Assembly (NCBI GenBank): GCA_965261735.1
Contig: OZ253470.1
Span: 1,553,479 to 1,617,478, forward strand
Direction: 5' to 3'
DNA length: 64,000 nucleotides
Source of the DNA: Alphaproteobacteria bacterium
Lineage (GTDB): Bacteria; Pseudomonadota; Alphaproteobacteria; SHVV01
Shown here one piece after another: positions 14,086 to 61,480 of the stretch. A model generated the notes under the pieces. It had not been told where the DNA came from and searched no databases. It saw only the letters and a list, made by a program, of their open reading frames with translations. The translations under genes were made by a program, and so were the position numbers. How positions within the stretch are numbered: position 1 is the stretch's first letter; each line of letters begins with the position of its first letter.

Positions 14086-14125
14086 TCTGAAGCTTTCGTT
14101 CTCCTTCCACTCGAGAACATTCTCC

Positions 14126-15230
14126 CTTTCCTATCCGGTTTACACCCACACCCACTAGGGCTAGAATGGGCGCAACCCGGATATAGGGGAGCGCGCCATG
14201 GATGTTCTCGACCGCGCCGATCTCCCATTCCCGCATTCGCTACCCGAGTTCCAGCGACTTTTCCCCGATGATGCGGCCTGCGCCGCCTACCTGGAGAAAG
14301 CCCGCTGGGGAGACGGCTTTGCCTGCCCGCACTGCGGCACGGCGGGAGAGCCGTTCCACTTTGAAAACCGCCCTGGCGTCCTGCGCTGCCGCAAGTGCCG
14401 CCAGAACACCGGGCTGACGGTGGGAACAGTGATGGAGCGTAGCCACACTCCGCTGAACGTCTGGTTCTGGGCCGCTTATCTGGTCGCCAGTCAGACGCCC
14501 GGCATGTCCGCCGTGCAGTTTCAGCGGCAACTTGGTCTTTCGCGCTACGAGACGGCCTTTCAAATTCTCCACAAGCTCCGCTCGGGCATGGTGCGGCCCA
14601 ACCAAGACAGGATCGGTGGACAGCCCAAGAACCATGTTGAGGTGGACGAAACCTGGGTTGGCGGGCGAACGCGTGGGGAAGGCCGTGGTGTTCACCACAA
14701 GGTTCCCGTCTCCTGTGCCATCGAGGTGCGTCATCGAAAGCCGGGCACCAAGCTCGACAACCGGAAAGACGGACGCTATGCCGGACGCGTTCGGCTCGCC
14801 GTCGTGCTCGACCGTAGCGCCGAGTCGCTCTGTGGGTTCGTCGAGAGCACCGTCGCGCCGCGATCGCTGATCGTTACTGACGATTGGAGCGGCTATGCTG
14901 GCCTCGGTAAGCGCGGCTATGAGCACTTCGCTGTTGCCGAGTGTGGTGATCCAGAGGTTGCCGAGCAATACCTGCCGATCATCCATCTGGTTTTCGCCAA
15001 CCTGAAGACGTGGCTGATCGATATCCACCACGGCGTTAGCCACCAGCACCTACAAGCCTACCTCAACGAGTTCACCTTCCGCTTCAACAGGCGGTTCTAC
15101 CCGTTCAACGCCTTCCGCTCATTGCTCGGCATCGCGGGCGACACCTCTGCTCCAACCTATGCCGAGCTTTACTCGGGAGAGTGGCGGCACCCTACATGTA
15201 GCGGTCATGGGCGTTAACCGGATAGGCAAG
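14126..15230 (+). mobile_element. IS1595-family insertion sequence, copy 1 (1105 bp)
   Basis: Imperfect 22-bp terminal IRs (CTTtCCTATCCGGTTTACACCC ... GGGCGTTAACCGGATAGGCAAG); identical termini on all copies; no clean TSD at this copy. Confidence 0.85.
14198..15217 (+). CDS. IS1595-family transposase (N-terminal zinc ribbon plus DDE domain)
   Basis: 339 aa; CPHCG...CRKCRQ zinc ribbon followed by a DDE_Tnp_IS1595-like core. Confidence 0.85.
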   Translation: MDVLDRADLPFPHSLPEFQRLFPDDAACAAYLEKARWGDGFACPHCGTAGEPFHFENRPGVLRCRKCRQNTGLTVGTVMERSHTPLNVWFWAAYLVASQTPGMSAVQFQRQLGLSRYETAFQILHKLRSGMVRPNQDRIGGQPKNHVEVDETWVGGRTRGEGRGVHHKVPVSCAIEVRHRKPGTKLDNRKDGRYAGRVRLAVVLDRSAESLCGFVESTVAPRSLIVTDDWSGYAGLGKRGYEHFAVAECGDPEVAEQYLPIIHLVFANLKTWLIDIHHGVSHQHLQAYLNEFTFRFNRRFYPFNAFRSLLGIAGDTSAPTYAELYSGEWRHPTCSGHGR

Positions 15231-15258: not shown

Positions 15259-16639
15259 CTAGCAGGGTGCTGAAAAAGTCATCATTGCCGGGCCTTGAAC
15301 TCGGATTCATCGCCGAAATGAAATGAGATTTCGTGTCTTAGGGTGAAACCGTCTTCAATCTCGACCGATCCGATGCCCTGGGCTTCGTCCAGTTCGATGA
15401 TCTGCCACTTTGCGGTCAGCGGCGTGCCGGTATCGCCCGTCATGTTGGCGCCTCCGCCAGCAGTCTGGGTAGTCGGACGAGGTTGTAGGCGGCCAAGGCC
15501 AGGGTGAACGAAGCGTCGACCCGGTGGCGGCCCCGGAATTTGGTCTTGCTCAATCCCGCGCTCGTCTTGACCCAGCCGAAGACCTCCTCGATGCGCTTGC
15601 GGCAACGTTGGCTGACGCCGTAACCGGGATGGCGCGTCGTGCGCCCGTCTATCTTGGTCTTGCGCCGCTTGCCGGTCTTGGTGACGTGGTCCTGGACGGC
15701 GATATGGGGGGTCACCTTGCGGTGCCGCAGTTCCTCGACAAAATCCGCGACGTCAAAACCCTTGTCCCCGCCCACCGTGATCCGACGCCGCCCGCCTCTA
15801 CTCTCCACCGGGCGATGCCTGTCGATCAGATCAAGGGCGGCTTCGCGTTCCGCCGTGCCCGACGCAATGGTCACGCCGCCGCCGACTGCCAGACCATGGC
15901 GGTTCTCCGTCAGCGCATGGCCCATGTAACACAGCTTGCTTTCCCGGCCATTACCCTTGCGATAAAGCCGGGCGTCCGGATCAGTGGTGCTTGCATGGGT
16001 CGCGTTCGAGCGTTTCTCGCCATGAAAATCCCGCGCGGCGTTGCGCCCCGATCCCCCGTCGCCATCGTCCTCACCTTTGGGACGAAAGCTCTTCATCGAC
16101 GCCCAGGCCTCGATCAATGTTCCGTCTACCGAAAAATGATCCCGGCTCAATAGTCCCCCTACCTTGTGGTGCTGGATAACCCCCGCAAGCAGCTGCCCCG
16201 AAACCTCCGCCTCCAGAAGACGGTCCCGGTTGTGGCAGAACGCGCTGGCGTCCCACACGCCATCGTCCAGCCCAAGCCCCACAAACCAGCAAAACAGCAT
16301 GTTGAAGTTTAGCTGCTCCATCAGCTGACGCTCCGAGCGGATCGAATAAAACGCTTGCAACAGTAACGCTCGAAGAAGCTTCTCCGGCGGGATCGATGGG
16401 CGACCCATGTGGGAATAAAGCGTCTCGAACTCCGAAGATAGAGACCCCAATACGTCGTTCACGATCTCACGGATCAGACGCAGCGGATGATCATCCGGAA
16501 CACGCTCTTCCAAGTCTACGTAGCTGAATAAATTGCCACTGCTTTGATCTCGACCCCGCATGCCATCCTCCATCACTCGAAGGAATCACAGAATCATGTC
16601 ACAACTGCAAAGGCGAGGACTTTTTCAGCAGCCTGCTAG
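15259..16639 (-). mobile_element. IS5-family (InsH-like N-terminal domain) insertion sequence, 1381 bp
   Basis: 22-bp IRs CTAGCAGGGTGCTGAAAAAGTC (15259-15280) and their reverse complement GACTTTTTCAGCAGCCTGCTAG (16618-16639), one mismatch. Confidence 0.8.
15440..16576 (-). CDS. IS5-family DDE transposase
   Basis: 378 aa; InsH N-terminal domain (LRALLLQAFYSIRSERQL...) and DDE core; a small 53-aa ORF (15282-15443) lies downstream inside the IS. Confidence 0.8.
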   Translation of the reverse strand: MMEDGMRGRDQSSGNLFSYVDLEERVPDDHPLRLIREIVNDVLGSLSSEFETLYSHMGRPSIPPEKLLRALLLQAFYSIRSERQLMEQLNFNMLFCWFVGLGLDDGVWDASAFCHNRDRLLEAEVSGQLLAGVIQHHKVGGLLSRDHFSVDGTLIEAWASMKSFRPKGEDDGDGGSGRNAARDFHGEKRSNATHASTTDPDARLYRKGNGRESKLCYMGHALTENRHGLAVGGGVTIASGTAEREAALDLIDRHRPVESRGGRRRITVGGDKGFDVADFVEELRHRKVTPHIAVQDHVTKTGKRRKTKIDGRTTRHPGYGVSQRCRKRIEEVFGWVKTSAGLSKTKFRGRHRVDASFTLALAAYNLVRLPRLLAEAPT

Positions 16640-21340: not shown

Positions 21341-21356
21341 ACTTCGAGGATCAGTC

Positions 21357-22461
21357 CTTGCCTATCCGGTTAACGCCCATGACCGCTACATGTAGGGTGC
21401 CGCCACTCTCCCGAGTAAAGCTCGGCATAGGTTGGAGCAGAGGTGTCGCCCGCGATGCCGAGCAATGAGCGGAAGGCGTTGAACGGGTAGAACCGCCTGT
21501 TGAAGCGGAAGGTGAACTCGTTGAGGTAGGCTTGTAGGTGCTGGTGGCTAACGCCGTGGTGGATACCGATCAGCCACGTCTTCAGGTTGGCGAAAACCAG
21601 ATGGATGATCGGCAGGTATTGCTCGGCAACCTCTGGATCACCACACTCGGCAACAGCGAAGTGCTCATAGCCGCGCTTACCGAGGCCAGCATAGCCGCTC
21701 CAATCGTCAGTAACGATCAGCGATCGCGGCGCGACGGTGCTCTCGACGAACCCACAGAGCGACTCGGCGCTACGGTCGAGCACGACGGCGAGCCGAACGC
21801 GTCCGGCATAGCGTCCGTCTTTCCGGTTGTCGAGCTTGGTGCCCGGCTTTCGATGACGCACCTCGATGGCACAGGAGACGGGAACCTTGTGGTGAACACC
21901 ACGGCCTTCCCCACGCGTTCGCCCGCCAACCCAGGTTTCGTCCACCTCAACATGGTTCTTGGGCTGTCCACCGATCCTGTCTTGGTTGGGCCGCACCATG
22001 CCCGAGCGGAGCTTGTGGAGAATTTGAAAGGCCGTCTCGTAGCGCGAAAGACCAAGTTGCCGCTGAAACTGCACGGCGGACATGCCGGGCGTCTGACTGG
22101 CGACCAGATAAGCGGCCCAGAACCAGACGTTCAGCGGAGTGTGGCTACGCTCCATCACTGTTCCCACCGTCAGCCCGGTGTTCTGGCGGCACTTGCGGCA
22201 GCGCAGGACGCCAGGGCGGTTTTCAAAGTGGAACGGCTCTCCCGCCGTGCCGCAGTGCGGGCAGGCAAAGCCGTCTCCCCAGCGGGCTTTCTCCAGGTAG
22301 GCGGCGCAGGCCGCATCATCGGGGAAAAGTCGCTGGAACTCGGGTAGCGAATGCGGGAATGGGAGATCGGCGCGGTCGAGAACATCCATGGCGCGCTCCC
22401 CTATATCCGGGTTGCGCCCATTCTAGCCCTAGTGGGTGTGGGTGTAAACCGGATAGGCAAG
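21357..22461 (-). mobile_element. IS1595-family IS, copy 2 (1105 bp) with an 8-bp TSD
   Basis: Perfect 8-bp direct repeat GATCAGTC at 21349-21356 and 22462-22469 flanking the identical termini. Confidence 0.9.
21370..22389 (-). CDS. IS1595-family transposase
   Basis: 339 aa, nearly identical to copy 1. Confidence 0.85.
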   Translation of the reverse strand: MDVLDRADLPFPHSLPEFQRLFPDDAACAAYLEKARWGDGFACPHCGTAGEPFHFENRPGVLRCRKCRQNTGLTVGTVMERSHTPLNVWFWAAYLVASQTPGMSAVQFQRQLGLSRYETAFQILHKLRSGMVRPNQDRIGGQPKNHVEVDETWVGGRTRGEGRGVHHKVPVSCAIEVRHRKPGTKLDNRKDGRYAGRVRLAVVLDRSAESLCGFVESTVAPRSLIVTDDWSGYAGLGKRGYEHFAVAECGDPEVAEQYLPIIHLVFANLKTWLIGIHHGVSHQHLQAYLNEFTFRFNRRFYPFNAFRSLLGIAGDTSAPTYAELYSGEWRHPTCSGHGR

Positions 22462-23046
22462 GATCAGTCATTCAAGGCTAAGTTGCTGGGCACGGACCGG
22501 CTGCGGGAGATGGCAAATCCAGGGCAGCTCGGACGCTCGTATGGTGACCACTTCGCCGCTGGATACCCGAAGAGCAGCTTCGAGCACCTGCGCCAGGCGG
22601 GCGGGGAAGGATCGGGCGTCGATACCTTTCTGTTGCTTGAAGACAGACTGGACCTCCGCATCCGCGTTGAAGCGACGCTGAGCCCTCTCTTCGACCGCGA
22701 CGTAGTGCTGGACTGGGATTCCGGTAGCCTCGTGCCGAAGGCGGCGATGCGGAAAAGTGGAGAGTCTTATCGCCTAGATCGTGACGAGTGTCACGGCATT
22801 AAGGAGCTCTTGGTTCTTCTCACGCACTTGTACGATGAGCGGCACGACTACCTGATCGTCGATGAGCCGGAACTCAATTTGCATCCGCAGTATCAAACGT
22901 TCTTCATGCAGGAGGTGCGCAAGGTTACCCAAAAGCAGGATGCGAGCGGAACCGCGAAAATCGTCTTCCTGATCACGCACTCGCCGTTCATACTGGTTTT
23001 GCGGTCGCACGATGACGTCAAGTCCGTGATATCGTTCGATCTCTAA
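22462..23046 (+). pseudogene. C-terminal half of an ABC/AAA_21-type ATPase (OLD / PARIS AriA-like); N-terminus with Walker A missing
   Basis: Walker B LIVDEPELNLHP, Q/H-loop-like FLITHSP; begins exactly at the IS copy 2 TSD. Confidence 0.55.
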
Positions 23047-26123: not shown

Positions 26124-26796
26124 ATGAGGCCGGGGCCTTTCGGGCGGCGGGAACGAGGGCGAGAGAACGGCTCTCGCCGCCCCGCCGGGAGCCCTCGATT
26201 GACCCATTCGAAGACGGCGGCGATCGGGACGGCGATCGCGGTAATCGCGGCGCTGTTTCTCGCCGGTTACATGACCGGCGATCATGGGGTGAAGCGGATG
26301 GACGGCGCGCGGGCTCGGCGACATCGCCGGGGGGGGGGGGCCCAGGTCCACAGCCGGAAGCGGCAAGCACGGGATCGCGGCCATGGTAGCTGGAACCATG
26401 GCGGGGCTGTTTCCCGGTAGCGGGATCGGCGCCTCGCTCGACAAGCTGTGTGCGGCCCGCACACGGCAAGCGGCGCTGGAGACCGGTCCAAGCGTGGTGC
26501 CCTTGCGCTGGCGCAATCGCAACACCGATAACGCAGGGGCGATTACACCGACCCGCACCTACAGATCGGCCGCCGGAATCTACTGCAGGGAATACCAACT
26601 CACCGCGACCGCCGGCGGGCGCACCGGGCAAGCCCACGGCAGCGGCTGCCGCCAGCCCGACGGCTCGTGGCGAGTATCGAACCAGCACCGCGCCTGCCCA
26701 TGGCGACCTGCCCGGCGCTGGAACGGCGGCGATCGATTCAACTGTCCTTGCACGGTCCAGCCGTTCCGGCTCCATCCGGTTCCGTTACGCCGGTGA
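26124..26796 (+). CDS. putative membrane / glycine-zipper surface-antigen-like protein split across a G12 tract
   Basis: TM helix (AAIGTAIAVIAALFLAGY) in frame 0; glycine-zipper and YCREY...GSGC...DGSW surface-antigen-like region in frame +1 after the poly-G tract. Confidence 0.35.
26329..26340 (+). repeat. homopolymeric G12 tract
   Basis: 12 consecutive G at the frame junction of the putative surface-antigen-like gene. Confidence 0.9.
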
Positions 26797-26887
26797 GAGC
26801 CAGAGCTTGAGCCGAAGGCGGGCGAGGGCGGATGCCGAAGAGGGTGTCCCCGCCCGGTTCCGCATTCACGCAATCCCGGAGACCGAC

Positions 26888-28334
26888 ATGCACGACCCCG
26901 AACGCGATATCCGCGACATCCCGCTGTCCCAACTCGAACTCTCGCCCGGCAATGTGCGCAAGACGCCGGCCGATGCTTCAGCCTTCACCGAGCTCAAGGC
27001 CTCGATCGCTGCCCACGGGTTGCTCGAGAACCTGATTGCCCGCGCCATGGAACCCGGCACCGATTATGTCGTGCGCTACGCGGTGATCGCCGGCGGACGG
27101 CGGCTTGCCGTGATGCAGGCGCTGGCCGCCGAAGGCGCGCTGGACGAGGACCACCCCGTGCCCTGCCGCATGATCGGAAGCATCGTGGCGGCCGAAGAAG
27201 TTTCGCTGGCCGAGAACAGTGTCCGCGCCGCCATGCACACGGCCGATCAGGTCGAGGCATTCCGCCGCCTGGCCGATGCGGGCAGCACGGCGGGCGCCAT
27301 CGCGGCGCGTTTCGGGGTCTCGGAGCGCACCGTGGAGAAGCGCCTGCGGCTCGGCAACGCCGCACCAGTGCTGCTCGAGGCCTACCGAGCAGGCGAAATC
27401 GATCTGGACACATTGATGGCCTTCGCCGTCACCACGGATCATGCGCGCCAGAACGCGGTCTGGGCGGCGGTGAGCCAACAGGGCTACCGTCCCGGCGCCT
27501 GGCAGATCAAGCGCCTGCTGACCGAGGACCGGGTTCCGGCCACGTCCGCCATCGCGCGTTTCGTCGGCATCGAGGCTTACGAGGCGGCGGGCGGCAGGAT
27601 CGATCGCGATCTGTTCGCCGAGGAGGACGAGCGGGGGATCTGGTTCGACGATCCCGAACTCTTGAACAAGCTCGCCATGGACAGCCTCCAGGTCGCGGCG
27701 AGGGAACTGGAGACGCGCTGGAAATGGGCCGAGGCGCGGCTCGACGTGGACTGGAGCGCCACCGCGAGCTTCGGGCGGGTGCGTCCGCAACCGGCCGAGC
27801 CGACAGACGGGGAGAAGGCCGAGATCGAACGTTTGAGGACCCGCAACGACGAACTCGCCAACATGGACGACGACGGCTGGACCGAAGAATTGGTCGAGGA
27901 AGCCGATGCCAACGAGACGCGCCTGGACGAGATCGAGGCCGCGATCGACGCCCGCGCGGTCTACCGGCGCGAGGACATCGCTATCGCCGGGTGCATCGCC
28001 ACCGTCGGCAACGACGGCGAGCTCAAGCTGATCCAGGGCCTGGTCAGGCCCGAGGACATGCCCGCGCGCGAACCCAACGATGCGAACATGGCCGGACAAG
28101 ACGATACCGGCGACGGGGAGAGCGCCAGTTCCAGCATCGAGGCTCCCACACTTGCGGCTCCCCCCGCTTCGCCCGGCGAAGGACAAGTTCGCCGGTATCG
28201 AGCCGGACGCCTTGCGCCCGTCGGGGCGCTTCGATCCCAACCTCCGCAGGCAGGTCAAGCGCGACGCCGATGCGCTCACGGCGCAATTCGCGGGCTACTT
28301 CGCGCCCGCCGCCGCGGACAGGGAAGCAGCCTGA
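26888..28334 (+). pseudogene. ParB/Srx-like nuclease domain protein (ICE/plasmid type), frameshifted at a C6 tract
   Basis: ParB N-domain (IPLSQLELSPGNVRK, VIAGGRRLAV) plus HTH; the frame changes at CCCCCC (28168-28173); the C-terminus continues in the frame ending at 28334. Confidence 0.7.
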
Positions 28335-29686
28335 TGGCCGCCCATGCCCGCTCGGAATCCGCCCGGCGCGTCAGCGACTGCATGACCACGCTGCTGCGCG
28401 ACCAGCCCTTCTTCGGCAGCCTGGCGTTAAGGCTGCCGATCCGCCCCGACGAAACCCGCGAGACCCTGGCCAGCGATGGCAAGGACATCCGCTACGCGCC
28501 CCAGTGGGTGGCGGACACCGATGCCGATCAGATCAAGACCGCGCTGGCGCGCGTGGTCCTGGCCTGCGCGTTGAAGCATCATACGCGGCGGGGCAGCCGC
28601 GACCCGGAGCGCTGGCAACGGGCCTCGCAGTTGGTCACCCACGGCCTGCTGCGGGACGCAGGTTTTGCACTGCCGCCCGGCGCAGAGGCCTGGGACGCCA
28701 TCAGCGCCGAACAGGCCTACGACCGGCTTCCGGAACCGCCGGACGATGCAGAGAATCCGGGCGATGCGTCTTCATCCAGCGATGTGGATGACAGTGGCAG
28801 CGCTGCCGGCCCTCGATGCGGTGACGGCGACGAAGACCAAAGCGCTCCGCCAAATCCAACCGATGACAACAGTCCGCAAGAGCAGGACGCGCCGGGATCG
28901 GGCAGCAATAGCGCGGGCTCGAAACCATCCGGGCAGACGCCCGCCAGCCACGACCCTTGCGGCACCGGCGAGGTCATGGACGCGGACGAGCGTTGCGACG
29001 CCACCGGCCAGTCCGGCGAATCGCCTCTGGACACACCCGCCGAGGAGCAGGCGTGGGACGAAGCCATGCACCAGGCCGCCAATCTCGCGCGGGCGCAAGG
29101 CAACGCGCCTGGCGCCGTCGAGGAGACGATCCGGCAAGCGCATCGCAGCATCCTCGACTGGCGGTCGCTGTTGCGCCGCTACATGACCGATGCCGCGCGC
29201 CGCGATGATAGCTGGAGCGTCCCCAACCGGCGTTTCATCGACAGCGGCCTCTATCTGCCCTCGATGCACTCGGAGGGCATCGATGCCATCGCCATCATCA
29301 TCGACACCTCCGGATCGCTGCCGGGCGAAACGCTGGCCCTGTTCTGGGCCGAGGTCCGCGAAATCACCGCCGAACTGCAGCCGGACAGCATCTATGTCCT
29401 TCAGGTCGACGCGGTGCTGCAGGACGCAGCCCGGTATCCCGCCGGGGAACTACCGGACAGCATCACGATCAAGGGACGCGGCGGGACCGATTTCCGGCCA
29501 GGCTTCGCATGGCTTCATGAGCATGGGGTGCGCCCAAGCTGCTGCCTCTACCTGACCGACATGGAATGCGACAGCTACCCCGAGGCCGAGCCTGGCTATC
29601 CTGTAATTTATTGCAACTGGGGGCCGCCGCCGGGGACAAGGAACCGCGAGCCCTGGGGCGAGCGCATCGACATCGGACCGGCATGA
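28334..29686 (+). CDS. DUF2201-family protein (putative metallopeptidase-like N-domain plus VWA-like C-domain)
   Basis: 450 aa; the ATG overlaps the ParB-like stop (TGATG); VWA-like IIIDTSGS motif in the C-terminal domain. Confidence 0.65.
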   Translation: MAAHARSESARRVSDCMTTLLRDQPFFGSLALRLPIRPDETRETLASDGKDIRYAPQWVADTDADQIKTALARVVLACALKHHTRRGSRDPERWQRASQLVTHGLLRDAGFALPPGAEAWDAISAEQAYDRLPEPPDDAENPGDASSSSDVDDSGSAAGPRCGDGDEDQSAPPNPTDDNSPQEQDAPGSGSNSAGSKPSGQTPASHDPCGTGEVMDADERCDATGQSGESPLDTPAEEQAWDEAMHQAANLARAQGNAPGAVEETIRQAHRSILDWRSLLRRYMTDAARRDDSWSVPNRRFIDSGLYLPSMHSEGIDAIAIIIDTSGSLPGETLALFWAEVREITAELQPDSIYVLQVDAVLQDAARYPAGELPDSITIKGRGGTDFRPGFAWLHEHGVRPSCCLYLTDMECDSYPEAEPGYPVIYCNWGPPPGTRNREPWGERIDIGPA

Positions 29687-29694
29687 CACCGCGG
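29651..29694 (+). repeat. 44-bp direct repeat, copy 1 (covers the last 9 codons and stop of the DUF2201 gene)
   Basis: 39/44 identical to 30092-30135. Confidence 0.8.
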
Positions 29695-30072
29695 CTAGTT
29701 GCCGCCGGCCGCCGGCCGGGCGGGATGCAGCAGGTAATCCGGTTCACAGCTCTCCAACAGGGAAGAGGTTCGATCTTCCAGCAGCAGTTCAATACACAGG
29801 TTTTCCGCCCTGCGGCCCTCCTGCCATTCATCCCACTCGAACACCCAAACCCTGAACCGCGGAAACTTGCGCGCCGCCTTGAGCCCGGCCGAATGAAGCT
29901 TTTGGAGAAGAGGGTCCGTGTCCACGCCATCCGGCGGCCAGTCTTCGAACGTGAGGATCAATCCCTTGGCCTTGGAACTGCCCTGGCCGAATCCGGAAGG
30001 GATTTCATCGGCGAGAGGACCGATAGAGAAGAACACGGACAATGCAACGAAGATGACGAAAGTTCGGTTCAT
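29695..30072 (-). CDS. small secreted hypothetical protein (signal peptide MNRTFVIFVALSVFFSIG)
   Basis: 125 aa; exactly fills the space between the two 44-bp direct repeats. Confidence 0.45.
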   Translation of the reverse strand: MNRTFVIFVALSVFFSIGPLADEIPSGFGQGSSKAKGLILTFEDWPPDGVDTDPLLQKLHSAGLKAARKFPRFRVWVFEWDEWQEGRRAENLCIELLLEDRTSSLLESCEPDYLLHPARPAAGGN

Positions 30073-30091
30073 CCAGGTTCCTGTCCGCCAA

Positions 30092-30135
30092 CCCCGGGGC
30101 AAGCGCATCGGCATCGGACCGGCCTGATACCGCGG
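30092..30135 (+). repeat. 44-bp direct repeat, copy 2
   Basis: Encodes ...GKRIGIGPA* in frame, mirroring the DUF2201 C-terminus ...GERIDIGPA*. Confidence 0.8.
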
Positions 30136-30318
30136 GCCGCACGCCCGTAATCCTCCATATCCGTGCTCCCGCCCGCAAGGAGGCGGGTTGCGCTGAGGCC
30201 GGGTGAACCGGGGCCGGGAGAGCGAGGACACCGGCTTCCGGCATCACCCGGCCCTTCGACGGAGCCGTAAGGCCCGGGCCACGGTTCCGGCCCGCCCTTT
30301 CCAATTGGGAGATCATTC

Positions 30319-33300
30319 ATGCTCGACGCCCAACCGGCGGCGACCGCGCCCGCGCGTCCGCCTGCCATCCAGCAGCTTCAACCATCCCCAGCGATTGCCG
30401 ATACCACAGGCGTTCGCTCCAAGCCTGCCGCGTTGCTGGCCGCGGCAACCGCTCTGCTTCTTGAGCTGGAGGTGGGCCGGGCGCTCGATCCAAAGACCTT
30501 GCGCGAAGCCATGAGCGCGGCCTTCGGCGCCAATGACACGCAAGGAGCCTGGGTCTGGAAGGACGCCTACGAAGCGGCCGAAGCCGCGATGGTGCTGTTC
30601 ATCCAGCGCTACGGCCGCCTCATGCGCCGCGAGGCGGGCGCCGGACCCGGATCGGCCGCCGCCATGCTCGCCATGCTGGAGACCCTGGCGGCGCTGGAGC
30701 CGTCCCAGACACGGCGGTCGGAGGAACAGCTTGCCCTGCAACAGTTCTCCACTCCCTTGCCGCTCGCCTACGCCGCGCTGCAGGCCGCCGCCATCCGGCC
30801 CGGCGACATCGTGCTGGAACCCTCGGCCGGCACCGGCATGCTCGCCGTCATGGCCGAATGCGCCCTCGGCAAGCGCACCGATGACGCGCGATCGGGGGAT
30901 CCCCTGCACCTGAACGAGATTGCCGCCGTTCGCGCCGGGTTGCTTGCGCGATTGTTCCCAGATTCGCCGGTCACCCGTCATAACGCCGAGTCCATCGCCG
31001 ATTATCTGCCGGACCTGCGTCCCACCGTGGTGTTGATGAACCCGCCCTTTTCGGCGAGCCCCGGGGTCCAGCGCATCCGCCATGACGCGGATTTGCGCCA
31101 TCTTCATTCCGCCTTCTCCATGCTCCCGGCGGGCGGGCGGCTGGTGGCCATCACGTCGGCCGGCTGCATCCCGGGCGATACCGCCTGGAGCCGCGCCTTC
31201 GAGCGCCTCGATCCACCGCCGCGCACCGTCTTTTCCAACGCCATCGACGGGCGCGCCTACGCACGGCGCGGCACGACCTTCGATACCCGGCTGACCGTAA
31301 TCGACCGTGATCCCGCCAATGCCCAGGGCGTTCCGGTCGACGCGCGGGAATCCGTCCCCACCGCTGCCGGGTTGCTTGCAGCTATCGCCGCCAATGTGCC
31401 GCAGCGGCAGGCGGTCGTGCCAATAGCCGCGGCCCTTGTTCCGGCCGGCGATCTGTTCGGCCATGCCGCTGCACGGCCGGCCCCGCGTAAGTGGGCAGCG
31501 GCCACCGCGCCCAACACCAGATCCGCAGACCCGCAAGTCCGCGATTGGGGGCCGGTGGCCGAACTCGACTACGAAATTTCACCCGCCAACCCTGAAGGCA
31601 AGGTAAGCGAACCGGAGGCCACCCATGCCGGCGTCTACGAGCCCTGGTGTCCCCGGACCGCGCGCATTCCCGGCGCCTGCGAACATCCGACGCCGCTGGT
31701 GCAATCCGCCGCCATGGCGGCGGTGCCCCATCCCGTGCCGTCGTACCGCCCGATGCTGCCCGTGCATGTCGTGACGGACGAACTGCTGTCCGACGCCCAG
31801 CTCGAAAGCGTCATCCTCGCCGGTCAGGCGCATGAGCGCCATCTTTCCGCGCACTACCGCATCGGCGAGGGGTGGGAGACCGTCGCGCGTGTCGCCGACA
31901 ATGAAGATGACAACAGCGATGACGGCAAAAACGACGAGACAATTCACTCTGATCCCGAACCCGCCACCGATGCTACCGGCGATGGCGAAGCCCTGTCCGC
32001 GCCGGTGCGTTTCCGGCGCGGCTGGATGCTGGGCGACGGCACCGGCTGCGGCAAGGGCCGCCAGGTCGCCGCCATCATTCTCGACCACTGGCTGCGCGGC
32101 CGCCGCCGGGCGCTGTGGCTGTCCGCCTCCGACAAGCTGCTGGAAGACGCGCTCCGCGACTGGGCCGCGGTCGGCGGCAGCGAGGCCGACCTCATCCCAT
32201 TGGGTAAGTTCCGCCAGGGGGCCGAAATTCCACAAGAGGCCGGTATCCTGTTCGCCACCTATGCAACCTTGCGCTCGCCCGCCCGCCAGGGAAAGCGCTC
32301 GCGCCTCGAACAGATCGTGCGCTGGCTCGCCGATGGCATGGACGAAGACTCCCGCCATGCCTTTGGCGGCGGGACCGCGCGGCGATACCGCCCCCTCGCA
32401 GCAGGGGCGCGCCGGATTGCGTTTGCAGAACGCCTTGCCGGATGCCCGCATCCTCTATGTCTCCGCCACCGGTGCCACCACGGTGCCCGGACTTGCCTAT
32501 GCGCGGCGCCTCGGCCTGTGGAGCGGCGCGGATTCGGGCGGCGAGACGCCCTTCAAGCAACGCACCGATTTCGTCACCGCCATGGAGGCCGGCGGGGTCG
32601 CGGCGATGGAGGTGGTGGCCCGCGATCTGAAGGCCCTCGGGCTCTACCAGGCCCGTGCGCTCAGCTATGACGGGGTCGAGGTCGAGCTGCTCGAACATCC
32701 GCTGACGCCCGAGCAGCGGCGCATCTACGACGCCTATGCCGGGGCCTTCAAGGTGATCCACCGCAATATAGAAGACGCCCTGAAAGCCACCGGCATCATG
32801 GAAGGCGATGCCACCCTGAACAAGAACGCCAAGTCCGCCGCGCTGTCGGCTTTCGAGGGCGCGAAGCAGCGTTTCTTCGGCCATCTCCTGACCGCAATGA
32901 AATGTCCCTCGCTGATCCGGTTCGTGGAGGCCGATCTCGAGGCAGGTCATGCCTGCGTCATCCAGCTGGTCTCCACCGGCGAGGCTTTGCTGGACCGGCG
33001 CATCGCCGATATCCCCGTCTCGGAATGGGACGATATCTCCGTCGACCTGACGCCGAGGGAGGCGTGCCTTGAATATCTGGCGCACGCATTCCCTGTGCAG
33101 TTGCAGGAGCCATTCACCGACGACGAGGGCAATCTCATGAGCCGGCCCGTGACCGACGCCGAGGGCAACCCGGTCTTGTGCCAGGAAGCAGTCGCTGCCC
33201 GCGACTCTCTGATCGAGAAGCTCGCGGCGTTGCCGCCGGTGCAGGCGGCGCTCGACCAGATCCTGCACCGTTTCGGCGGCAAGGCCGTCGCCGAGGTCAC

Positions 33301-34855
33301 CGGCCGCTCGCGCAGGGTCCTGCGCATCGCCGATGCGTCAAGCGAGCGCCTGGCGCTGCGCAACCGTCCTGCGTCGGCCAACCTCGCCGAGACCGCCGCC
33401 TTCATGGCGGGCGACAAACGCATCCTCGTCTTCTCCATGGCCGGCGGCACCGGGCGCAGCTATCACGCCGACCTTGGCTGCGGCAACACTGCGCGGCGTA
33501 TCCATTACCTGCTGGAGCCGGGCTGGCGGGCCGACCAGGCGATCCAGGGACTGGGCCGCACCCATCGAACGCACCAGGCCTCGGCCCCCTTGTTCCGCCC
33601 CGTCACCACGGATGTGAAGGGCGAGCGGCGGTTCATTGCCACCATCGCGCGGCGTCTCGACAGCCTGGGCGCCATCACCCGGGGACAGCGGGACAGCCAG
33701 ACGGCCATGGGCGGCGGCGATGCCACCCTGTTCCGGGCCAGCGACAATCTGGAGAGCCCCTACGCCAAGGTGGCGCTGCGTCAGTTCTACATCGCGCTGT
33801 GGCGCGGCAACATTGCGGGCTGGTCCATGGACCGTTTCGAGGACGCCACCGGGCTGAAGTTGATCTGGGAAGGCTCGCTCAAGGAAGACCTGCCGCCGAT
33901 GCCCCGGTTCCTCAACCGGCTGCTGGCCCTGCCCATCGCCGAGCAGAACGAGTTGTTCGCCGAGCTGGAAACCCGCATCGAGGCCAACATCGAACAGGCC
34001 ATCGAGGCCGGGACCCACGAGCAGGGTGTCGAGACCATCCGGGCCGACTCCCTCACCGTGGCCTCGCGCGAGACGGTTCACGTTCATGAAGCCTCGGGCG
34101 CCGCCACCGAGCTTGTCGAGATCGTCCGCCGCGACCGGCTCGTGCCGCTGGCGGCCGACGATGCGCTCGCCATGCGGGACGGGCGTCCCGTCGTCAACAC
34201 CCGCTCGAAGCGCGCCGCCGTGGTCCTGCCCGCGCCGTCGCGGATGTTCGAGGACGGCGGGGTCGAGGCCCGGGTCCGCCTGGTCCGTCCCGCCGCCCGC
34301 GAGCCCATGGCCGCGGCCGAGCTTGCCGCCTCGAACTGGGAGGATTCCGGCGAAGATCGCTGGCGCGTGTTGTGGGATGCGGAAATCGAGGGGCTGCCCA
34401 GCCACACCGAATCCCGCCTGTGGCTGGTCACCGGCCTGCTGCTGCCCATCTGGGACCGATTGCCGGGCGAGAACATGCGGGTGCGCCGGCTTGCGACCGA
34501 TGCCGGGGAAAGCCTGCTCGGCCGGGTTCTGACGCCCGAGCAGGCGCACGCCTTCCGCGACGCCTTCGGACTGGCCGGCGGACCGGTCATGAGCCCGGCC
34601 GAGATGCACGAGGCGATTCTGATCCGCGGCGCGTCCTTCGATCTCGCCAACGGCTGGCGGCTTGCAAGGCGGCGCCTGATGGGCGCCGGCCGCGTCGAGA
34701 TCGAAGGACCGGCCGATAACGACCTCGCGGCGCTCAAGCGCATGGGGTGCGCCACCGAGATCGTCTCGTGGCGCACCCGTGTGTTCGTGCCCCAATACAT
34801 CGACCTCGGCCGCATCCTCGATCGCTGGCCGCTCGCGGATGCGAACCCGGCGTAA
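30319..34855 (+). pseudogene. large N6-adenine DNA methyltransferase / SNF2 (strawberry-notch-like) helicase fusion, frameshifted in helicase motif II
   Basis: MTase motif I (LEPSAGTGMLAV) and IV (NPPF); helicase Walker A GDGTGCGKGRQVA; frame switch near 32335-32375, where DEAH...APSQQGRAGLRLQ is split between frames; helicase C-domain and conserved C-terminal tail present. Confidence 0.75.
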
Positions 34856-42479: not shown

Positions 42480-43790
42480 TCATGATCGTGTCCCGCGGAG
42501 TGGTGTAAGAGCGTTGCGCTCTACGCGGCTCCCGGCGTGTAGGGCCGGGACGTTCAGGCTGCCACGGTGGGCAGCGTGATGGGGACACCATCGCTCAGCG
42601 GAGCGATGGATTCCAGCGTCATGTATCTCCTTGAGACGGCCCACTCGTCGTTCTGCTCGAGAAGGATGGCGCCGACGAGCCGTGTGATGGCGGCTTCGTT
42701 GGGAAAGATACCGACGACGTTGGTGCGACGCTTGACCTCGGCATGGAGCCGTTCGATCGGGTTTGTGGAGTGCAATTTCTGGCGGTGCTCCCTGGGGAAG
42801 CTCATGTAGGCGAGGACGTCGTGCTCGGCTTCGTCCATGAGAACTGCCAGCTTGGGCACCTTGGGCCTGAGCTGGTCGGCGACCTGGCGCCACTGGACCT
42901 TCGCGCTGTCGGCGTCCTCCTGGGCGAAGGCGGAGACGACGCGCCGGCCCTGGCGGCCGGCATGGGCCAGCAGGTTGCGGGCGAAGTGCACGCGGCAGCG
43001 CTGCCATGTGGCGCCGAGGATCCGGGTCGCGGCGGCCTTCAGGCCCTTGTGGTCGTCGGAGATCACCAGCTTCACGCCGCGCAGCCCGCGCCGGGCCAGC
43101 GAGCGCAGGAACTCGGTCCAGAAGGTCTCGGCCTCCGACGCGCCGATCGCCACGCCCAGGACCTCGCGGCGGCCTTGGTCGTTGACGGCCACAGCCACGG
43201 TCACCGCGACCGAGACGATGCGTCCGATCTGGCGCACCTTCACGTAGGTGGCGTCGAGCCACAGATAGGGCCAGTCGCCCTCCAGCGGTCGATCGAGGAA
43301 GCCGGTGACCTTATCGTCGATCTCGCCGCACAGCCTGGAGACCTGGCTCTTGGAGGCGCCCGACATCCCCATCGCCTGAACCAGATCGTCGACCGAGCGG
43401 GTCGACACCCCCTGGATGTAGGCCTCCTGGATCACCGCAGCCAGCGCCTTCTCGGCCATCCGCCGCGGCTCCAGGAAGCCCGGGAAGTAGCTTCCCTTCC
43501 TCAACTTCGGGATCTTCAGCTCGACCGTGCCGGCCCGCGTCTCCCAGGACCGGTCGCGGTAGCCGTTGCGATGGGTGATACGATCCGCCGAGCGCTCGCC
43601 GTGCCCGGCGCCGGTCAGGCCCTCAACCTCCAGTGCCATCAGCCGCTCGGCCGTGAAGCCGATCATCTCGCAAAGCAGATCGGCATCGGAGCTCTTCTCC
43701 AAAAGCGCGCGCAGGGTCATCATGTCCTGGGTCATCGTGGTTCTCCTTCGGGTCAGGTTGGTTTGCACTAGCCCAACCCTAAACCGGAAC
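42480..43790 (-). mobile_element. IS256-family insertion sequence (boundaries approximate)
   Basis: Mutator-type transposase gene with short flanks; terminal IRs not confidently delimited. Confidence 0.5.
42554..43735 (-). CDS. IS256-family (Mutator-like) transposase
   Basis: About 393 aa from MTQDMMTL; conserved IS256 DDE core. Confidence 0.85.
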
Positions 43791-52048: not shown

Positions 52049-53137
52049 GGCTTTGGTGCATGGACCTGAGGATTAGTATATCTGGCTCCGCTTCCGTCTT
52101 TGAGAGTTTGTCATGCCTTTCAAGTTCCACGCATCGCGTCGCCACCATATCCCCAGAGCCAAGTACCGGGTCATGAACTGGCCGGATTATGACCGTGGTT
52201 TGGTTCGGCGCGGCGACATTCGTTTCTGGATTGATGAGAGCGCTCTGGAGCAATGGGACGCAGCCAAGCGGCGAACTCCTGGTGGCCAGCGGCGGTTTTC
52301 AGAGTTGGCGATTTCCACGACACTGATGCTGGGGGTGGTCTTCAGACTGCCGCTGCGCGAGACGGAAGGCTTTGTGCGTTCCCTCGTGGACTTGATGGGG
52401 TGCGATCTGCCGGTGCCGGATCACACCACGCTGTCGCGGCGGCGGCGAACGGTGGATGTCGTTGTGGAAACCAGCACGAACAAGCGGTCTACGGATATCG
52501 TGCTGGATTCCACGGGCCTGAAATTCTTTAGCGCTGGCGAGTGGGCTCGCGCCAAGCACGGTGAAACGCGGCGCTCGTGGCGCAAGCTGCATATCTCGGT
52601 TGACCCGGCCAGCAGCGAGATCCGGACGCATGAACTGACCGGTGACGACACGGCCGATGCGACGATGGCGGGACCGCTGGTCGCCGGTTCCGGTGGGATG
52701 ATCCGGCGCGTGTTTGCCGACGGCGCCTATGACGGGGAGCCCGTGACAAAAGCGATCCGAGAAGCTCGGCCACCGAATTCACCACCTGAAATCATCATCC
52801 CGCCACGCGCCACATCCATTCCTCCCCCGGACACGCCTCATGGCGGATCGGAACGGGAGCACCATGCGGCGGAGATCGCGTCGAAGGGAAGGATGAACTG
52901 GCAGAAACGACAGGGCTACGGATTGAGAGCGCTTGGCGAAACAGCCATGGCTCGCGTCAAGAGGCTCAACGGCGGCAAGCTCAACGCTCGCACATTCCAA
53001 TACCAACAAACCGAAATCGCCATGCAGATCGACGTACTCAATCGCTCTATCCGTGCGGCGAAACCAAACACAATCAGGATCCGCTAACCAACCGGGGAAT
53101 GGGCGATCACACCATTGCGGCTCCATGCACCAAAGCC
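52049..53137 (+). mobile_element. IS903-group (IS5 family) insertion sequence, 1089 bp
   Basis: 18-bp IRs GGCTTTGGTGCATGGACC (52049-52066) and the reverse complement of GGCTCCATGCACCAAAGCC (53119-53137); no 9-bp TSD. Confidence 0.8.
52113..53087 (+). CDS. IS903-group transposase
   Basis: 324 aa; MPFKFHASRRHHIPRAKYRV...RGDIRFWI is characteristic of IS903-like transposases. Confidence 0.85.
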   Translation: MPFKFHASRRHHIPRAKYRVMNWPDYDRGLVRRGDIRFWIDESALEQWDAAKRRTPGGQRRFSELAISTTLMLGVVFRLPLRETEGFVRSLVDLMGCDLPVPDHTTLSRRRRTVDVVVETSTNKRSTDIVLDSTGLKFFSAGEWARAKHGETRRSWRKLHISVDPASSEIRTHELTGDDTADATMAGPLVAGSGGMIRRVFADGAYDGEPVTKAIREARPPNSPPEIIIPPRATSIPPPDTPHGGSEREHHAAEIASKGRMNWQKRQGYGLRALGETAMARVKRLNGGKLNARTFQYQQTEIAMQIDVLNRSIRAAKPNTIRIR

Positions 53138-53640: not shown

Positions 53641-53663
53641 TTCCTATCTCGCTCTACTTCTTC

Positions 53664-54768
53664 CTTACCTATCCGGTTTACACCCACACCCACTAGGGCT
53701 AGGATGGGCGCAACCCGGATATAGGGGAGCGCGCCATGGATGTTCTCGACCGCGCCGGTCTCCCATTCCCGCATTCGCTACCCGAGTTCCAGCGACTTTT
53801 CCCCGATGATGCGGCCTGCGCCGCCTACCTGGAGAAAGCCCGCTGGGGAGACGGCTTTGCCTGCCCGCACTGCGGCACGGCGGGAGAGCCGTTCCACTTT
53901 GAAAACCGCCCTGGCGTCCTGCGCTGCCGCAAGTGCCGCCAGAACACCGGGCTGACGGTGGGAACAGTGATGGAGCGTAGCCACACTCCGCTGAACGTCT
54001 GGTTCTGGGCCGCTTATCTGGTCGCCAGTCAGACGCCCGGCATGTCCGCCGTGCAGTTTCAGCGGCAACTTGGTCTTTCGCGCTACGAGACGGCCTTTCA
54101 AATTCTCCACAAGCTCCGCTCGGGCATGGTGCGGCCCAACCAAGACAGGATCGGTGGACAGCCCAAGAACCATGTTGAGGTGGACGAAACCTGGGTTGGC
54201 GGGCGAACGCGTGGGGAAGGCCGTGGTGTTCACCACAAGGTTCCCGTCTCCTGTGCCATCGAGGTGCGTCATCGAAAGCCGGGCACCAAGCTCGACAACC
54301 GGAAAGACGGACGCTATGCCGGACGCGTTCGGCTCGCCGTCGTGCTCGACCGTAGCGCCGAGTCGCTCTGTGGGTTCGTCGAGAGCACCGTCGCGCCGCG
54401 ATCGCTGATCGTTACTGACGATTGGAGCGGCTATGCTGGCCTCGGGAAGCGCGGCTATGAGCACTTCGCTGTTGCCGAGTGTGGTGATCCAGAGGTTGCC
54501 GAGCAATACCTGCCGATCATCCATCTGGTTTTCGCCAACCTGAAGACGTGGCTGATCGGTATCCACCACGGCGTTAGCCACCAGCACCTACAAGCCTACC
54601 TCAACGAGTTCACCTTCCGCTTCAACAGGCGGTTCTACCCGTTCAACGCCTTCCGCTCATTGCTCGGCATCGCGGGCGACACCTCTGCTCCAACCTATGC
54701 CGAGCTTTACTCGGGAGAGTGGCGGCACCCTACATGTAGCGGTCATGGGCGTTAACCGGATAGGCAAG
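53664..54768 (+). mobile_element. IS1595-family IS, copy 3 (1105 bp)
   Basis: Same termini as the other copies; flanks ACTTCTTC / GTTTCTTC (6/8), consistent with a degraded 8-bp TSD. Confidence 0.85.
53736..54755 (+). CDS. IS1595-family transposase
   Basis: 339 aa, nearly identical to copies 1 and 2. Confidence 0.85.
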   Translation: MDVLDRAGLPFPHSLPEFQRLFPDDAACAAYLEKARWGDGFACPHCGTAGEPFHFENRPGVLRCRKCRQNTGLTVGTVMERSHTPLNVWFWAAYLVASQTPGMSAVQFQRQLGLSRYETAFQILHKLRSGMVRPNQDRIGGQPKNHVEVDETWVGGRTRGEGRGVHHKVPVSCAIEVRHRKPGTKLDNRKDGRYAGRVRLAVVLDRSAESLCGFVESTVAPRSLIVTDDWSGYAGLGKRGYEHFAVAECGDPEVAEQYLPIIHLVFANLKTWLIGIHHGVSHQHLQAYLNEFTFRFNRRFYPFNAFRSLLGIAGDTSAPTYAELYSGEWRHPTCSGHGR

Positions 54769-54854
54769 GTTTCTTCATGTACTGCGGGACTTATTTCCAC
54801 ATCCGATGCTACGACCAAAACAGTGCGCAAAAAAACGTACGCAGTAGTGCGGGG

Positions 54855-56673: not shown

Positions 56674-56892
56674 CTTGCCTATCCGGTTAACGCCCATGAC
56701 CGCTACATGTAGGGTGCCGCCACTCTCCCGAGTAAAGCTCGGCATAGGTTGGAGCAGAGGTGTCGCCCGCGATGCCGAGCAATGAGCGGAAGGCGTTGAA
56801 CGGGTAGAACCGCCTGTTGAAGCGGAAGGTGAACTCGTTGAGGTAGGCTTGTAGGTGCTGGTGGCTAACGTCGTGGTGGATACCGATCAGCC
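56674..56892 (-). mobile_element. IS1595-family IS fragment (right-end 219 bp only)
   Basis: Identical to the right end of the full copies, encoding the last 68 aa of the transposase; identity breaks at about 56892. Confidence 0.85.
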
Positions 56893-59897: not shown

Positions 59898-60396
59898 CTC
59901 GGGGATAGCGGCGAGTGGAGCGCCGGGAAGAGCGGCCGGCGGGGTGCGCCGCCCACAGTCATCATCCGGGAGTTTGCCGGCGCGGCAAACTCCTCCTTGT
60001 CCCCGATCATAGTCAACCCGTCGAAGCGATGGCAAATTTGACGCAGTCGCCGACCGGGGATGAGGAATGGGCTGTCCAGAGAGCCGGTTACATGACACTC
60101 GAATCCATTGCTCCGGTGAGCGACATTGACTCCATAGAGCTGCCCGCAGTGGGAGACTGAGCGTCCGAGCCCAGACCGCCGGAAACCTTGTAGAGTGCAA
60201 CGCTCCCACACCACTCCCGGGGACACGATCCCGTCGTATGGCGAGACAAAGTCAGCGGACACTAGAAATCTACAGCCAGCATAGGGAACTTCGAAGAATA
60301 TTGCCGGTGACCTGTCCTCTTCATCGCCCTCTCGCCCAAGAATCCAATCAATCCAGGCAACCACACTCGGCGTACCCATAAGGGCGAAGTTGGAAC

Positions 60397-61426: not shown

Positions 61427-61480
61427 GTTGGAACGATGACTTGCCAACGCGAGTGAAGTTGGCGTTGCCTCCGGGTTGTA

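Follow-up and report, generated by a model that had tools for sequence, protein, structure and literature searches.

The window, a stretch of 64,000 nucleotides of an alphaproteobacterial contig, carries on its plus strand a DUF2201 gene (28334–29686) whose product combines a putative metallopeptidase domain with a VWA-like domain (Pfam matches PF13203, E 3.5e-42, and PF09967, E 9.7e-21). Downstream of the site lies a strawberry-notch-like methylase/helicase gene (30319–34855, plus strand; Pfam AAA_34), which in the window is split by a frameshift near 32354–32370, where a tblastn alignment with the intact L091 protein passes from frame 1 to frame 2. The space between the two genes contains a small CDS on the minus strand (29695–30072) encoding an exported protein of 125 aa, and the original intergenic region 5′ of the strawberry-notch gene (30136–30318, plus strand). 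The latter is conserved in related loci both with and without the small gene and includes a conserved imperfect palindrome at 30166–30187. The ParB-DUF2201-strawberry-notch block in which the site sits is of a kind typically seen in alphaproteobacterial integrative conjugative elements. Promoter and terminator scans of 29500–30400 found neither signal, an Rfam search of 29400–30500 gave no match and a tRNA scan found none. A blastn search of a plasmid database with positions 28900–30900 returned distant strawberry-notch matches only, none of them at the site, and a literature search pairing DUF2201 with “conjugative” returned no paper.

The small gene is bracketed by two direct repeats. Copy 1 (DR1, 29651–29694, CCCTGGGGCGAGCGCATCGACATCGGACCGGCATGACACCGCGG) and copy 2 (DR2, 30092–30135, CCCCGGGGCAAGCGCATCGGCATCGGACCGGCCTGATACCGCGG) are identical at 39 of 44 positions when the sequence is read directly, in agreement with the first-pass annotation of this DNA. 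A repeat search widens the similarity to 51 nt (29644–29694 and 30085–30135, 86% identity, spacing 441), of which positions 30085–30091 derive from the donor gene described below and not from the duplication. The 21-nt core of the repeat, with up to three mismatches allowed, occurs at two places only in the 64-kb window (chance expectation 0.03), and the window has no third copy of the repeat. DR1 represents the target sequence retained at the 3′ end of DUF2201 and holds the last 11 codons and the stop codon of that ORF (...PWGERIDIGPA-stop). The duplicated target, DR2, no longer has a coding role and lies 5′ of the small gene. It is read in frame as ...PRGKRIGIGPA-stop by an ORF at 29918–30127; the ORF translations thus bear out what had been proposed for both copies. 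The small gene had also been described as exactly filling the gap between the repeats. It does abut DR1 directly, but it stops 19 nt short of DR2 and occupies 378 of the 397 bp.

The encoded protein displays a hydrophobic N-terminus (MNRTFVIFVALSVFFSIGPLA) and invariant C93 and C109. A Shine-Dalgarno-like AGGAA on the minus strand (30078–30082) is positioned 6–10 nt upstream of the ATG. An exact-match look-up of the 125-aa protein returned no record, a PDB sequence search gave no match, and a Pfam search gave no match at E ≤ 0.01 and only noise at E ≤ 10. Homologues form 53 clusters at 90% identity and dN/dS ranges from 0.12 to 0.60 among the element-borne copies, which argues that the small gene is real and under moderate purifying selection, though often broken. 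The AF2 model presents a ferredoxin-like β-α-β-β-α-β core with a pLDDT of 83.7 (46 when only 18 close homologues are supplied), and a Foldseek search with this predicted model places subtilase prodomains among the top matches. In 8 of 20 long relatives retrieved by a profile search, a Peptidase_S8 domain above the gathering score is located C-terminal of the homologous domain. The protein resembles subtilase prodomains and I9-type inhibitors (subtilisin propeptide 1scj_B and POIA1 1v5i_B) in being exported and in its predicted β-α-β-β-α-β domain of ~90 residues. Its C-terminal ...CEPDYLLHP motif recalls the ...VEpD... end of subtilase prodomains. Probably the cargo is an exported protein that amounts to a stand-alone, subtilase-prodomain-like domain, and by analogy it may act as a protease inhibitor or chaperone.

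Comparison with related loci reveals an insertion polymorphism at the 3′ end of DUF2201. Among 80 related DUF2201 loci considered, L009, L011 and L017 each display one 44-mer and no insert, with 86–94% identity in both flanks, and their gap between DUF2201 and strawberry-notch measures 153–192 bp against 633–640 bp in the filled loci. DR1 matches the lone 44-mer of these empty sites, and the insert with its duplication distinguishes them from the filled loci of the window, L007, L008, L010 and L012. These insert-free loci support the earlier suggestion of an insertion at the DUF2201 3′ end accompanied by a long target duplication. The small gene is absent from all 71 more distant DUF2201 loci; a tblastn search of the distant loci with the strawberry-notch N-terminus gave no matches, and the comparison of the site itself is confined to the close family. 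An ancestral order in which the small gene always stood between DUF2201 and strawberry-notch, the repeats being due to chance or convergence, agrees with the arrangement being common to several loci and has no other support. That order had been named in advance as the observation that would speak against an insertion; it is refuted by the empty sites of close relatives, by the missing gene in the 71 distant loci, by the native chromosomal locus described below and by a repeat that is highly non-random, and its probability is practically nil.

Identical junctions are present in the nine fetched filled copies (the window, L001, L007, L008, L010, L012, L089, L092 and L091), of which L089 carries a 155-bp internal deletion and L091 is informative for the right junction only. 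In addition, the read-through tails of 44 element-type protein clusters translate antisense DR1 and DR2. Since both junctions are shared by all element-borne copies, these trace to a single event and not to a recurrently moving unit. The flank identity matrices are mosaic, which points to an allele that was spread or erased by recombination. After insertion it would have spread and been reshuffled among related elements through homologous recombination. Some of the empty sites may be DR1 × DR2 revertants and not never-inserted alleles, because with the exception of one A/G site they have the structure of a DR1 × DR2 recombination product.

The inserted DNA corresponds to part of a chromosomal gene, cut short at both ends. 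The donor-derived fragment (29702–30097, minus strand) comprises ~122 codons of this gene and the final 25 nt of its leader; in its native place the gene is flanked by an OpuAC-type ABC transporter on one side and by a DDAH/M20-peptidase/arginase/APS-kinase cluster on the other. This native locus is syntenic in six genomes of ~51% GC (L002, L087, L088, L090, L093 and L094). The fragment is 88–91% identical in nucleotide sequence to the native alleles of L087, L090, L093 and L094 over 366 nt, and its leader equals the L087 leader and departs from the L094 leader by one base. The AGGAA bases are also found in the L087 and L094 leaders, so the ribosome-binding motif would have arrived with the donor leader. 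One end point of the insert lies inside the donor leader and the other inside the donor CDS. Native proteins are 136–150 aa long and have a tail, SVNTKVKV..., that is missing from the C-terminally truncated element copy. Similarly, the native leader element extends over at least 109 bp in L087 and L094 and for proteins P0059, P0064 and P0065, whereas the element copy has only its last 25 nt, with the break at CCAGGG. The repeat is not present at the native loci of the small gene. GC content is 0.59 in the insert, 0.52 in the native CDS and 0.68 in the element flanks, and the 15 fixed native-versus-element differences include 11 AT→GC and 2 GC→AT changes.

Taken together, these comparisons identify the donor locus and indicate a direction of transfer from host chromosome to element. 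The converse possibility, that the L087 leader derives from the element, was dropped because several full-length native alleles have the long leader and the element only 25 nt of it; the AT→GC substitution bias also speaks against it. The element copy differs from the natives by a dS of ~0.17–0.27, more than the natives differ among themselves (~0.07); therefore, either the closest donor allele is unsampled or the element copy evolved faster. A precise RBS-plus-CDS cassette was discarded as a description of the insert, since the C-terminal tail of the native protein is missing from the copy. Likewise, the “discrete cassette” of the first-pass annotation gives way to a truncated chromosomal gene traced to its syntenic native locus, and the “recombination scar” that it offered as a second option is the better of the two.

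The leader-side junction falls within a 6-bp microhomology, CCCTGG, which extends to 11 of 13 matching positions over a wider stretch. The hexamer is located at 29651–29656 in DR1 and at 30092–30097 in DR2, where the ancestral CCCTGG reads CCCCGG in the window. In the junction alignment the donor reads ...CCGCCAACCCTGG up to the break and AAAGC beyond it, the target ...CCGCGAGCCCTGG and then GGCGAGC, and the product CCGCCAACCC followed by T or C and then GGGGC. The left junction, within the 3′ part of the donor gene, has no clean microhomology and contains a 7-nt filler, CTAGTTG (29695–29701), which was delimited by comparing the filled loci with the empty and the native ones. The filler supplies the minus-strand stop codon TAG, replaced by CAG in several sister copies, and many homologues of the small protein have read-through tails. 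Donor and target have a TGAYACYGCKGGCCGC patch in common; a simple crossover there was considered for this junction and does not reproduce the observed sequence. With no clean microhomology and an unexplained filler on this side, the junctions carry only half of their diagnostic weight.

Filled and empty alleles, a unique donor locus, and microhomology together with filler are the features expected of microhomology-mediated illegitimate recombination, and all of them are found here. The locus probably arose through a single recombinase-independent, microhomology-guided illegitimate recombination that captured a host-gene fragment and duplicated its target. A conjugative-element-like region would have copied in part of a host chromosomal gene, namely the 25 nt of leader nearest the CDS, RBS included, together with ~122 codons from its start, so that 397 bp would have been inserted in antisense orientation directly 3′ of the DUF2201 stop codon with duplication of 38–44 bp of target. 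The leader-side junction would have formed in the shared hexamer CCCTGG, and the 7-nt filler of the other junction would by chance have provided a stop codon. As to the enzymology, replication template switching of the MMBIR/FoSTeS type is favoured from the junctions, although we give it slightly less than an even chance. The nascent strand would depart from the element at ...CCGCGG, copy the donor gene backwards up to its leader and re-anneal at CCCTGG, 38 nt back from where it had left. DR1 has two specific substitutions, GCC→GCA and TGATAC→TGACAC, with a slight likeness to donor TTGACAC, and these may point to an event more complex than this simple two-switch model. For 38–44 bp to be duplicated, the template switch would have to run backwards in this way, or else the nicks would have to lie ~40 nt apart. 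The DUF2201 3′ end in DR1 and the strawberry-notch upstream sequence in DR2 are both intact because the target was duplicated, and the sparing of the two flanking genes is probably the reason this accident survived.

Staggered nicks are central to a competing account of the same anatomy, which we hold to be rather unlikely. Two opposite-strand nicks ~40 nt apart would generate a double-strand break with long overhangs, into which a stray piece of host-gene DNA would be end-joined, through Ku/LigD or microhomology-mediated joining, with fill-in of the overhangs producing the duplication. Break repair of this kind would equally be a one-off acquisition of a foreign fragment at a 6-bp microhomology with no recombinase present, and the 7 nt of untemplated-looking filler are typical of end joining. 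In contrast, a nick pair staggered by 38–44 nt is unexplained, as no sequence marks such sites. RNA could also have served as template, the 5′ part of the host mRNA being reverse-transcribed by target priming at staggered nicks with a microhomology-guided template jump back to DNA. On this reading a conjugative element would have captured the gene by way of RNA, with the 44-bp repeat as a genuine target-site duplication. The insert does begin in the leader, follows a transcribed region colinearly in sense orientation, is truncated at the 3′ end and lies between the two copies of the target, and the described ability of bacterial group II-intron-like reverse transcriptases to work in microhomology-mediated break repair (bioRxiv 10.1101/2022.03.14.484287) counts in favour of such a retrocopy. 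Nevertheless the leader breakpoint matches no promoter-predicted start, the nearest consensus promoter in the native leader being expected to start transcription ~75 nt upstream, and it is already explained by microhomology without RNA. The ORFs scanned, ~24 out of 65 that reach 250 aa or more, include no reverse transcriptase, and we regard an RNA intermediate as highly improbable.

Two further explanations invoke a dedicated recombinase. Site-specific integration of a circular mini-element of ~441 bp, carrying an attP-like DUF2201 3′ end, into an attB site would leave hybrid attL and attR. The repeats do look hybrid at first sight, since the left part of DR1 agrees with the empty site and its right part does not, with DR2 showing the reverse, and the duplication restores the 3′ end of the target gene as att sites do. 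However, the seemingly foreign bases with which DR2 begins on the left belong to the donor gene's native leader and not to a second DUF2201 end, and the hybrid reading was dropped once this match was recognized; the DR1-specific bases amount to two point differences. Furthermore, the insert encodes the 125-aa CDS only, with no integrase within or adjacent to it, the 64 kb contain only two copies of the core, the native locus is devoid of the repeat and all copies come from one event. The ORFs scanned in the window include no recombinase near the site and a single tyrosine integrase, at 62182–63711; the cognate recombinase that the first-pass annotation proposed to look for was not found, and the 6-bp microhomology and 7-nt filler make one unnecessary. 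Such integration is very unlikely, and the same can be said with slightly more force of an unrecognised non-autonomous transposable element with an unusually long target-site duplication. The flanking direct repeats and the wealth of IS elements in the window (IS1595-, IS5- and IS256-like) would fit the latter. In contrast, the insert has no terminal inverted repeats and matches a truncated host gene colinearly, one insertion site is known and the nine fetched copies share one junction pair. IS target duplications measure about 2–14 bp, and the 38–44 bp observed here lie far above that range. Thus, the earlier statement that the insert is neither IS-like nor attC-like holds, as no inverted repeats at its ends, no attC-like repeat and no nearby recombinase were found.

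The event is ordinary illegitimate recombination and no new mobile cassette, and it leaves the current understanding of recombination unchanged. It provides a clean example of a conjugative-element gene block gaining host cargo without transposon, integron or integrase, for which donor, empty target and product sequences are all available; the insertion was probably tolerated because the target duplication left both flanking genes intact. The event also serves as a unique, datable marker that ties elements of ~68% GC to a past stay in a host of ~51% GC. These elements are now found in several alphaproteobacterial MAG lineages, and the captured copy has drifted toward high GC. In addition, the subtilase-prodomain-like exported domain offers the first functional lead for a protein family without annotation.

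Among known systems, the closest likeness is with insertions of the MMBIR/FoSTeS type, which are similarly one-off, use a distant locus as template, show microhomology at one junction and filler at the other, duplicate the sequence at the re-entry point and involve no dedicated recombinase. Microhomology template-switch insertions and duplications are described at E. coli amplification junctions and in complex human insertions (e.g. PMC5120786). The present case differs in that a functional-looking gene fragment of 397 bp has been fixed as cargo of a conjugative element, and in that the mechanism is deduced from the junctions. The attL and attR sites of tRNA-targeting islands and cis-mobilisable elements likewise form direct repeats of tens of bp whose upstream copy completes the target gene. 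In contrast, no integrase, independent att site or recurrence is found here, and the deviations of DR2 come from the donor leader and not from an attP. With the target duplications of IS elements, transposons and MITEs the locus shares a duplicated target that directly abuts the inserted DNA; it is distinguished from them by a duplication of 38–44 bp, by ends without inverted repeats, by the lack of a transposase and by the truncated host gene inside. Finally, integron cassettes resemble the insert as small, promoter-poor single ORFs with their own RBS carried as cargo in a mobile element. In contrast to them, the insert has no attC-like imperfect palindrome (no such inverted repeat was found between 28500 and 31500), no IntI (no integron integrase among the ORFs scanned) and no attI, and it lies antisense to the surrounding operon at one site.

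The two copies of the repeat, DR1 (29651–29694) and DR2 (30092–30135), are identical at 39 of 44 positions, as the first-pass annotation had claimed. The 21-nt core, searched with up to 3 mismatches, occurs at only these two sites in the window (chance expectation 0.03), with no third repeat copy there. A repeat search extends the ungapped similarity to 51 nt (29644–29694 and 30085–30135; 86%, spacing 441). DR1 contains the last codons and stop of a plus-strand gene assigned by domain search to DUF2201_N plus DUF2201 (28334–29686), while DR2 indeed reads in frame as ...PRGKRIGIGPA*. The minus-strand ORF of 125 aa between the repeats (29695–30072) has a hydrophobic N-terminus and is preceded by a Shine-Dalgarno-like AGGAA (30078–30082, minus strand). 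Downstream, a strawberry-notch-like methylase/helicase gene begins at 30319 on the plus strand (AAA_34 match). The GC content of the insert is 0.58–0.63 versus ~0.68–0.72 in the flanks.

The intergenic stretch ahead of the strawberry-notch gene contains an imperfect palindrome, CCCGCCCGCAAGGAGGCGGG (30166–30187); it has no Rfam match and is kept in all relatives with and without the insert, including the 76%-identical locus L091. The strawberry-notch-like gene is broken into overlapping ORFs (30319–32670 and 31832–34855), with the reading frame changing from 1 to 2 at 32354–32370 (tblastn, intact 1523-aa L091 protein as query); it is a pseudogene, or else the assembly is wrong here. A ParB-like N-terminal region (weak ParB_N; HTH) is fused stop-free with the DUF2201 frame in one 1078-aa ORF (26450–29686). 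Upstream of ~28175 the window has 47% identity and is unrelated to the other family members, themselves 92–97% alike there; by sequence comparison the breakpoint near 28175 is a mosaic junction specific to the window.

A DUF2201 protein scan with one genome per species returned 80 loci. Four of them (L007, L008, L010 and L012) carry the small gene and both repeats, whereas three equally close loci (L009, L011 and L017; flanks 86–94% identical) have a single repeat copy without insert. In these empty loci 153–192 bp separate the DUF2201 stop from the start of the strawberry-notch gene, versus 633–640 bp in the filled ones, and none of 71 more distant DUF2201 loci (0/71) has the small gene. The comparison with insert-free homologous loci proposed earlier thus reveals an insertion polymorphism, and the small gene region is an insertion because related loci differ in having it. 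Identity matrices over six flank segments are mosaic and do not place the empty loci as an outgroup; empty L017 and filled L089 are 98% identical on one side. These mosaic flanks indicate that the insert allele spread or was erased via homologous recombination among elements. The opportunity is provided by the two to three copies of the element family, with and without insert, per MAG contig: filled L007 and empty L009 share CBDHDJ010000004.1, and L011 (empty), L012 (filled) and L024 share CBDCMV010000003.1. A single base, CCA versus CCG, sets the empty sites apart from both repeats in most filled loci. This is weak evidence that the empty sites never carried the insert; they might still be DR1 × DR2 revertants.

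The origin of the insert is found in the chromosomal homologues. At 67–84% identity these native alleles occupy a conserved setting, flanked by an OpuAC ABC transporter and, at the opposite end, by DDAH, M20 peptidase, arginase and APS kinase, an arrangement observed in six loci in ~51% GC DNA (L002, L087, L088, L090, L093 and L094); homologues further off have other chromosomal contexts. Native proteins are 136–150 aa long and end in a tail, ...AQPAADSVNTKVKVTRSAEVKV..., missing from the captured copy in the element, which nevertheless retains the entire conserved core because this ends at CEPDYLLHP. Upstream of the gene, the element copy and the native leader of L087 and L094 have exactly 25 nt in common. 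This leader is part of a longer segment (≥109 bp) that several native alleles of full length carry, as seen in the read-through proteins P0059, P0064 and P0065 (...FQGWRTGTW-MNRI...). In L087 (4857–5007) a 135-bp segment sits at the start codon between 8-bp duplications, GATGAACC, and displaces the usual AT-rich leader; ~109 bp of it recur in L094 (~185–295), P0059, P0064 and P0065 with a different upstream junction, and the 25-nt leader and RBS of the element copy derive from the end of an L087-type segment. Element copy and natives are 88–91% identical over 366 nt, natives among themselves 96–98% and element copies 94–96%. The 15 fixed native-versus-element differences include 11 AT→GC and 2 GC→AT changes, a bias that fits a gene of ~52% GC origin drifting within a ~68% GC element. 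The gene thus moved from chromosome to element.

The junctions define how the fragment was joined. On the leader side (plus strand, slash at the join) the donor reads ...CCTGTCCGCCAACCCTGG/AAAGCTGC, the empty target ...GAACCGCGAGCCCTGG/GGCGAGCGC and the product ...CCTGTCCGCCAACCC[T/C]GGGGC[A/G]AGCGC. The join falls within CCCTGG, common to donor and target (11/13 on extension), so that the seven bases with which DR2 begins in its 51-nt form (30085–30091) are donor leader and not target duplicate. The true duplication is 44 bp (29651–29694 = 30092–30135), or 38 bp minus the microhomology. At the opposite junction the target stops at ...ACCGCGG (29694) and is followed by the filler CTAGTTG (29695–29701), which matches neither donor nor target and supplies the TAG stop of the captured gene; donor homology resumes at CCGCCGG (donor CTGCTGG). 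Two base changes specific to DR1 resemble the donor's TTGACAC, perhaps by chance.

The same junction sequences are present in all filled loci, including L001, L089, L091 and L092, which were added via the genomic contexts of protein-search homologues. L001 and L092 hold degraded fragments with both repeats retained (the L092 flanks are truncated among IS elements), L089 has lost 155 bp within the small gene, and L091 keeps the small gene, DR2 and strawberry-notch side, its DR1/DUF2201 side being replaced by an SRAP-gene side. Among the 44 element-type protein clusters (90% identity), many bear extensions translating antisense DR1 (NQPRCHAGPMSMRSPQG...) or DR2 (MPMRLPRGWRxGTW-MNRT), which places identical junctions in many metagenomes. 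All element copies go back to one insertion event. The stop of the captured gene (29695–29697, minus strand) is polymorphic, TAG versus CAG; with CAG, in L001, L007, L010 and many metagenomic copies, the ORF continues in antisense for another 30–40 codons, across DR1 and into the 3′ end of DUF2201. The C-terminal sequence of P0027, P0029 and P0033–P0035 switches abruptly past ...EDRT, possibly through IS insertions; up to that motif, P0029 and the window protein are 99% identical. These switches, the L089 deletion, the replaced side of L091 and the truncated L092 flanks are forms of secondary decay of the captured gene.

The first-pass annotation had called the insert neither IS-like nor attC-like, which agrees with the lack of an attC-like palindrome at the site and of inverted repeats bounding the insert. 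No Rfam match or tRNA was found at the site either, and the search for a cognate recombinase found no recombinase-like gene adjoining it: the window contains chromosomal genes (RlmN, ArgG, BipA) along with several IS elements, and its one tyrosine integrase, of the P4 type, lies 32 kb away. The repeats look like hybrid attL/attR sites, a pattern for which the donor leader would account: the bases specific to DR2 are those of the leader, and those specific to DR1 amount to two point differences. What is shown is that a gene fragment was captured once, free of any recombinase, with a 38–44-bp target duplication, microhomology at one junction and filler at the other. The insertion with target duplication and the recombination scar suggested earlier therefore both hold, and the discrete mobile cassette does not. 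As the route of capture, replication template switching is favoured. The nascent strand would depart the element past ...CCGCGG, copy the donor gene antisense from ~codon 122 back into the leader, and re-anneal via CCCTGG 38 nt behind the departure point, by which the interval would be duplicated. The same product would result if a break whose ends were staggered by ~40 nt had captured a fragment during repair, a route indistinguishable here from template switching. The duplication keeps the DUF2201 gene and the strawberry-notch upstream region intact, which plausibly explains why an insertion of this kind survived.

IS elements crowd the element region. An IS1595-family element with a 339-aa transposase (DDE_Tnp_IS1595 plus zinc ribbon) is present in at least four 99%-identical copies of ~1.1 kb (14120–15230, plus; 21356–22465, minus; 53658–54771, plus; 60393–61429, with a small deletion) and a 219-bp fragment (56674–56892), together with IS5-like (15440–16576; 52113–53087) and IS256/Mutator-like transposases (42554–43768; 54931–56157). 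A direct repeat of ~800 bp, 81% identical (61565–62357 and 62856–63652), overlaps the tyrosine-integrase ORF (62182–63711) and ORFs just upstream and may represent tandem paralogous integrase segments.

Intact element copies display dN/dS values of 0.12–0.60 (median near 0.2), and the core is broken in 17 of the 44 element-type clusters, part of which may be long-read assembly errors. Pfam and PDB sequence searches with the cargo protein gave no match. A profile search retrieved 184 relatives, the domain often lying near the N-terminus of proteins of 300–1000 aa, with Peptidase_S8 downstream in 8 of 20 such long proteins. With a deeper alignment, AF2 predicts a β-α-β-β-α-β fold (pLDDT 83.7), and C93 and C109 are invariant. 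The cargo is thus probably a stand-alone exported subtilase-prodomain-like protein, for which an inhibitor or chaperone role would be suggested by analogy. The value of the case lies in a well-documented cargo capture that offers a lineage marker; the capture itself is a fresh instance of an already known type of event and holds no surprise for the specialist.
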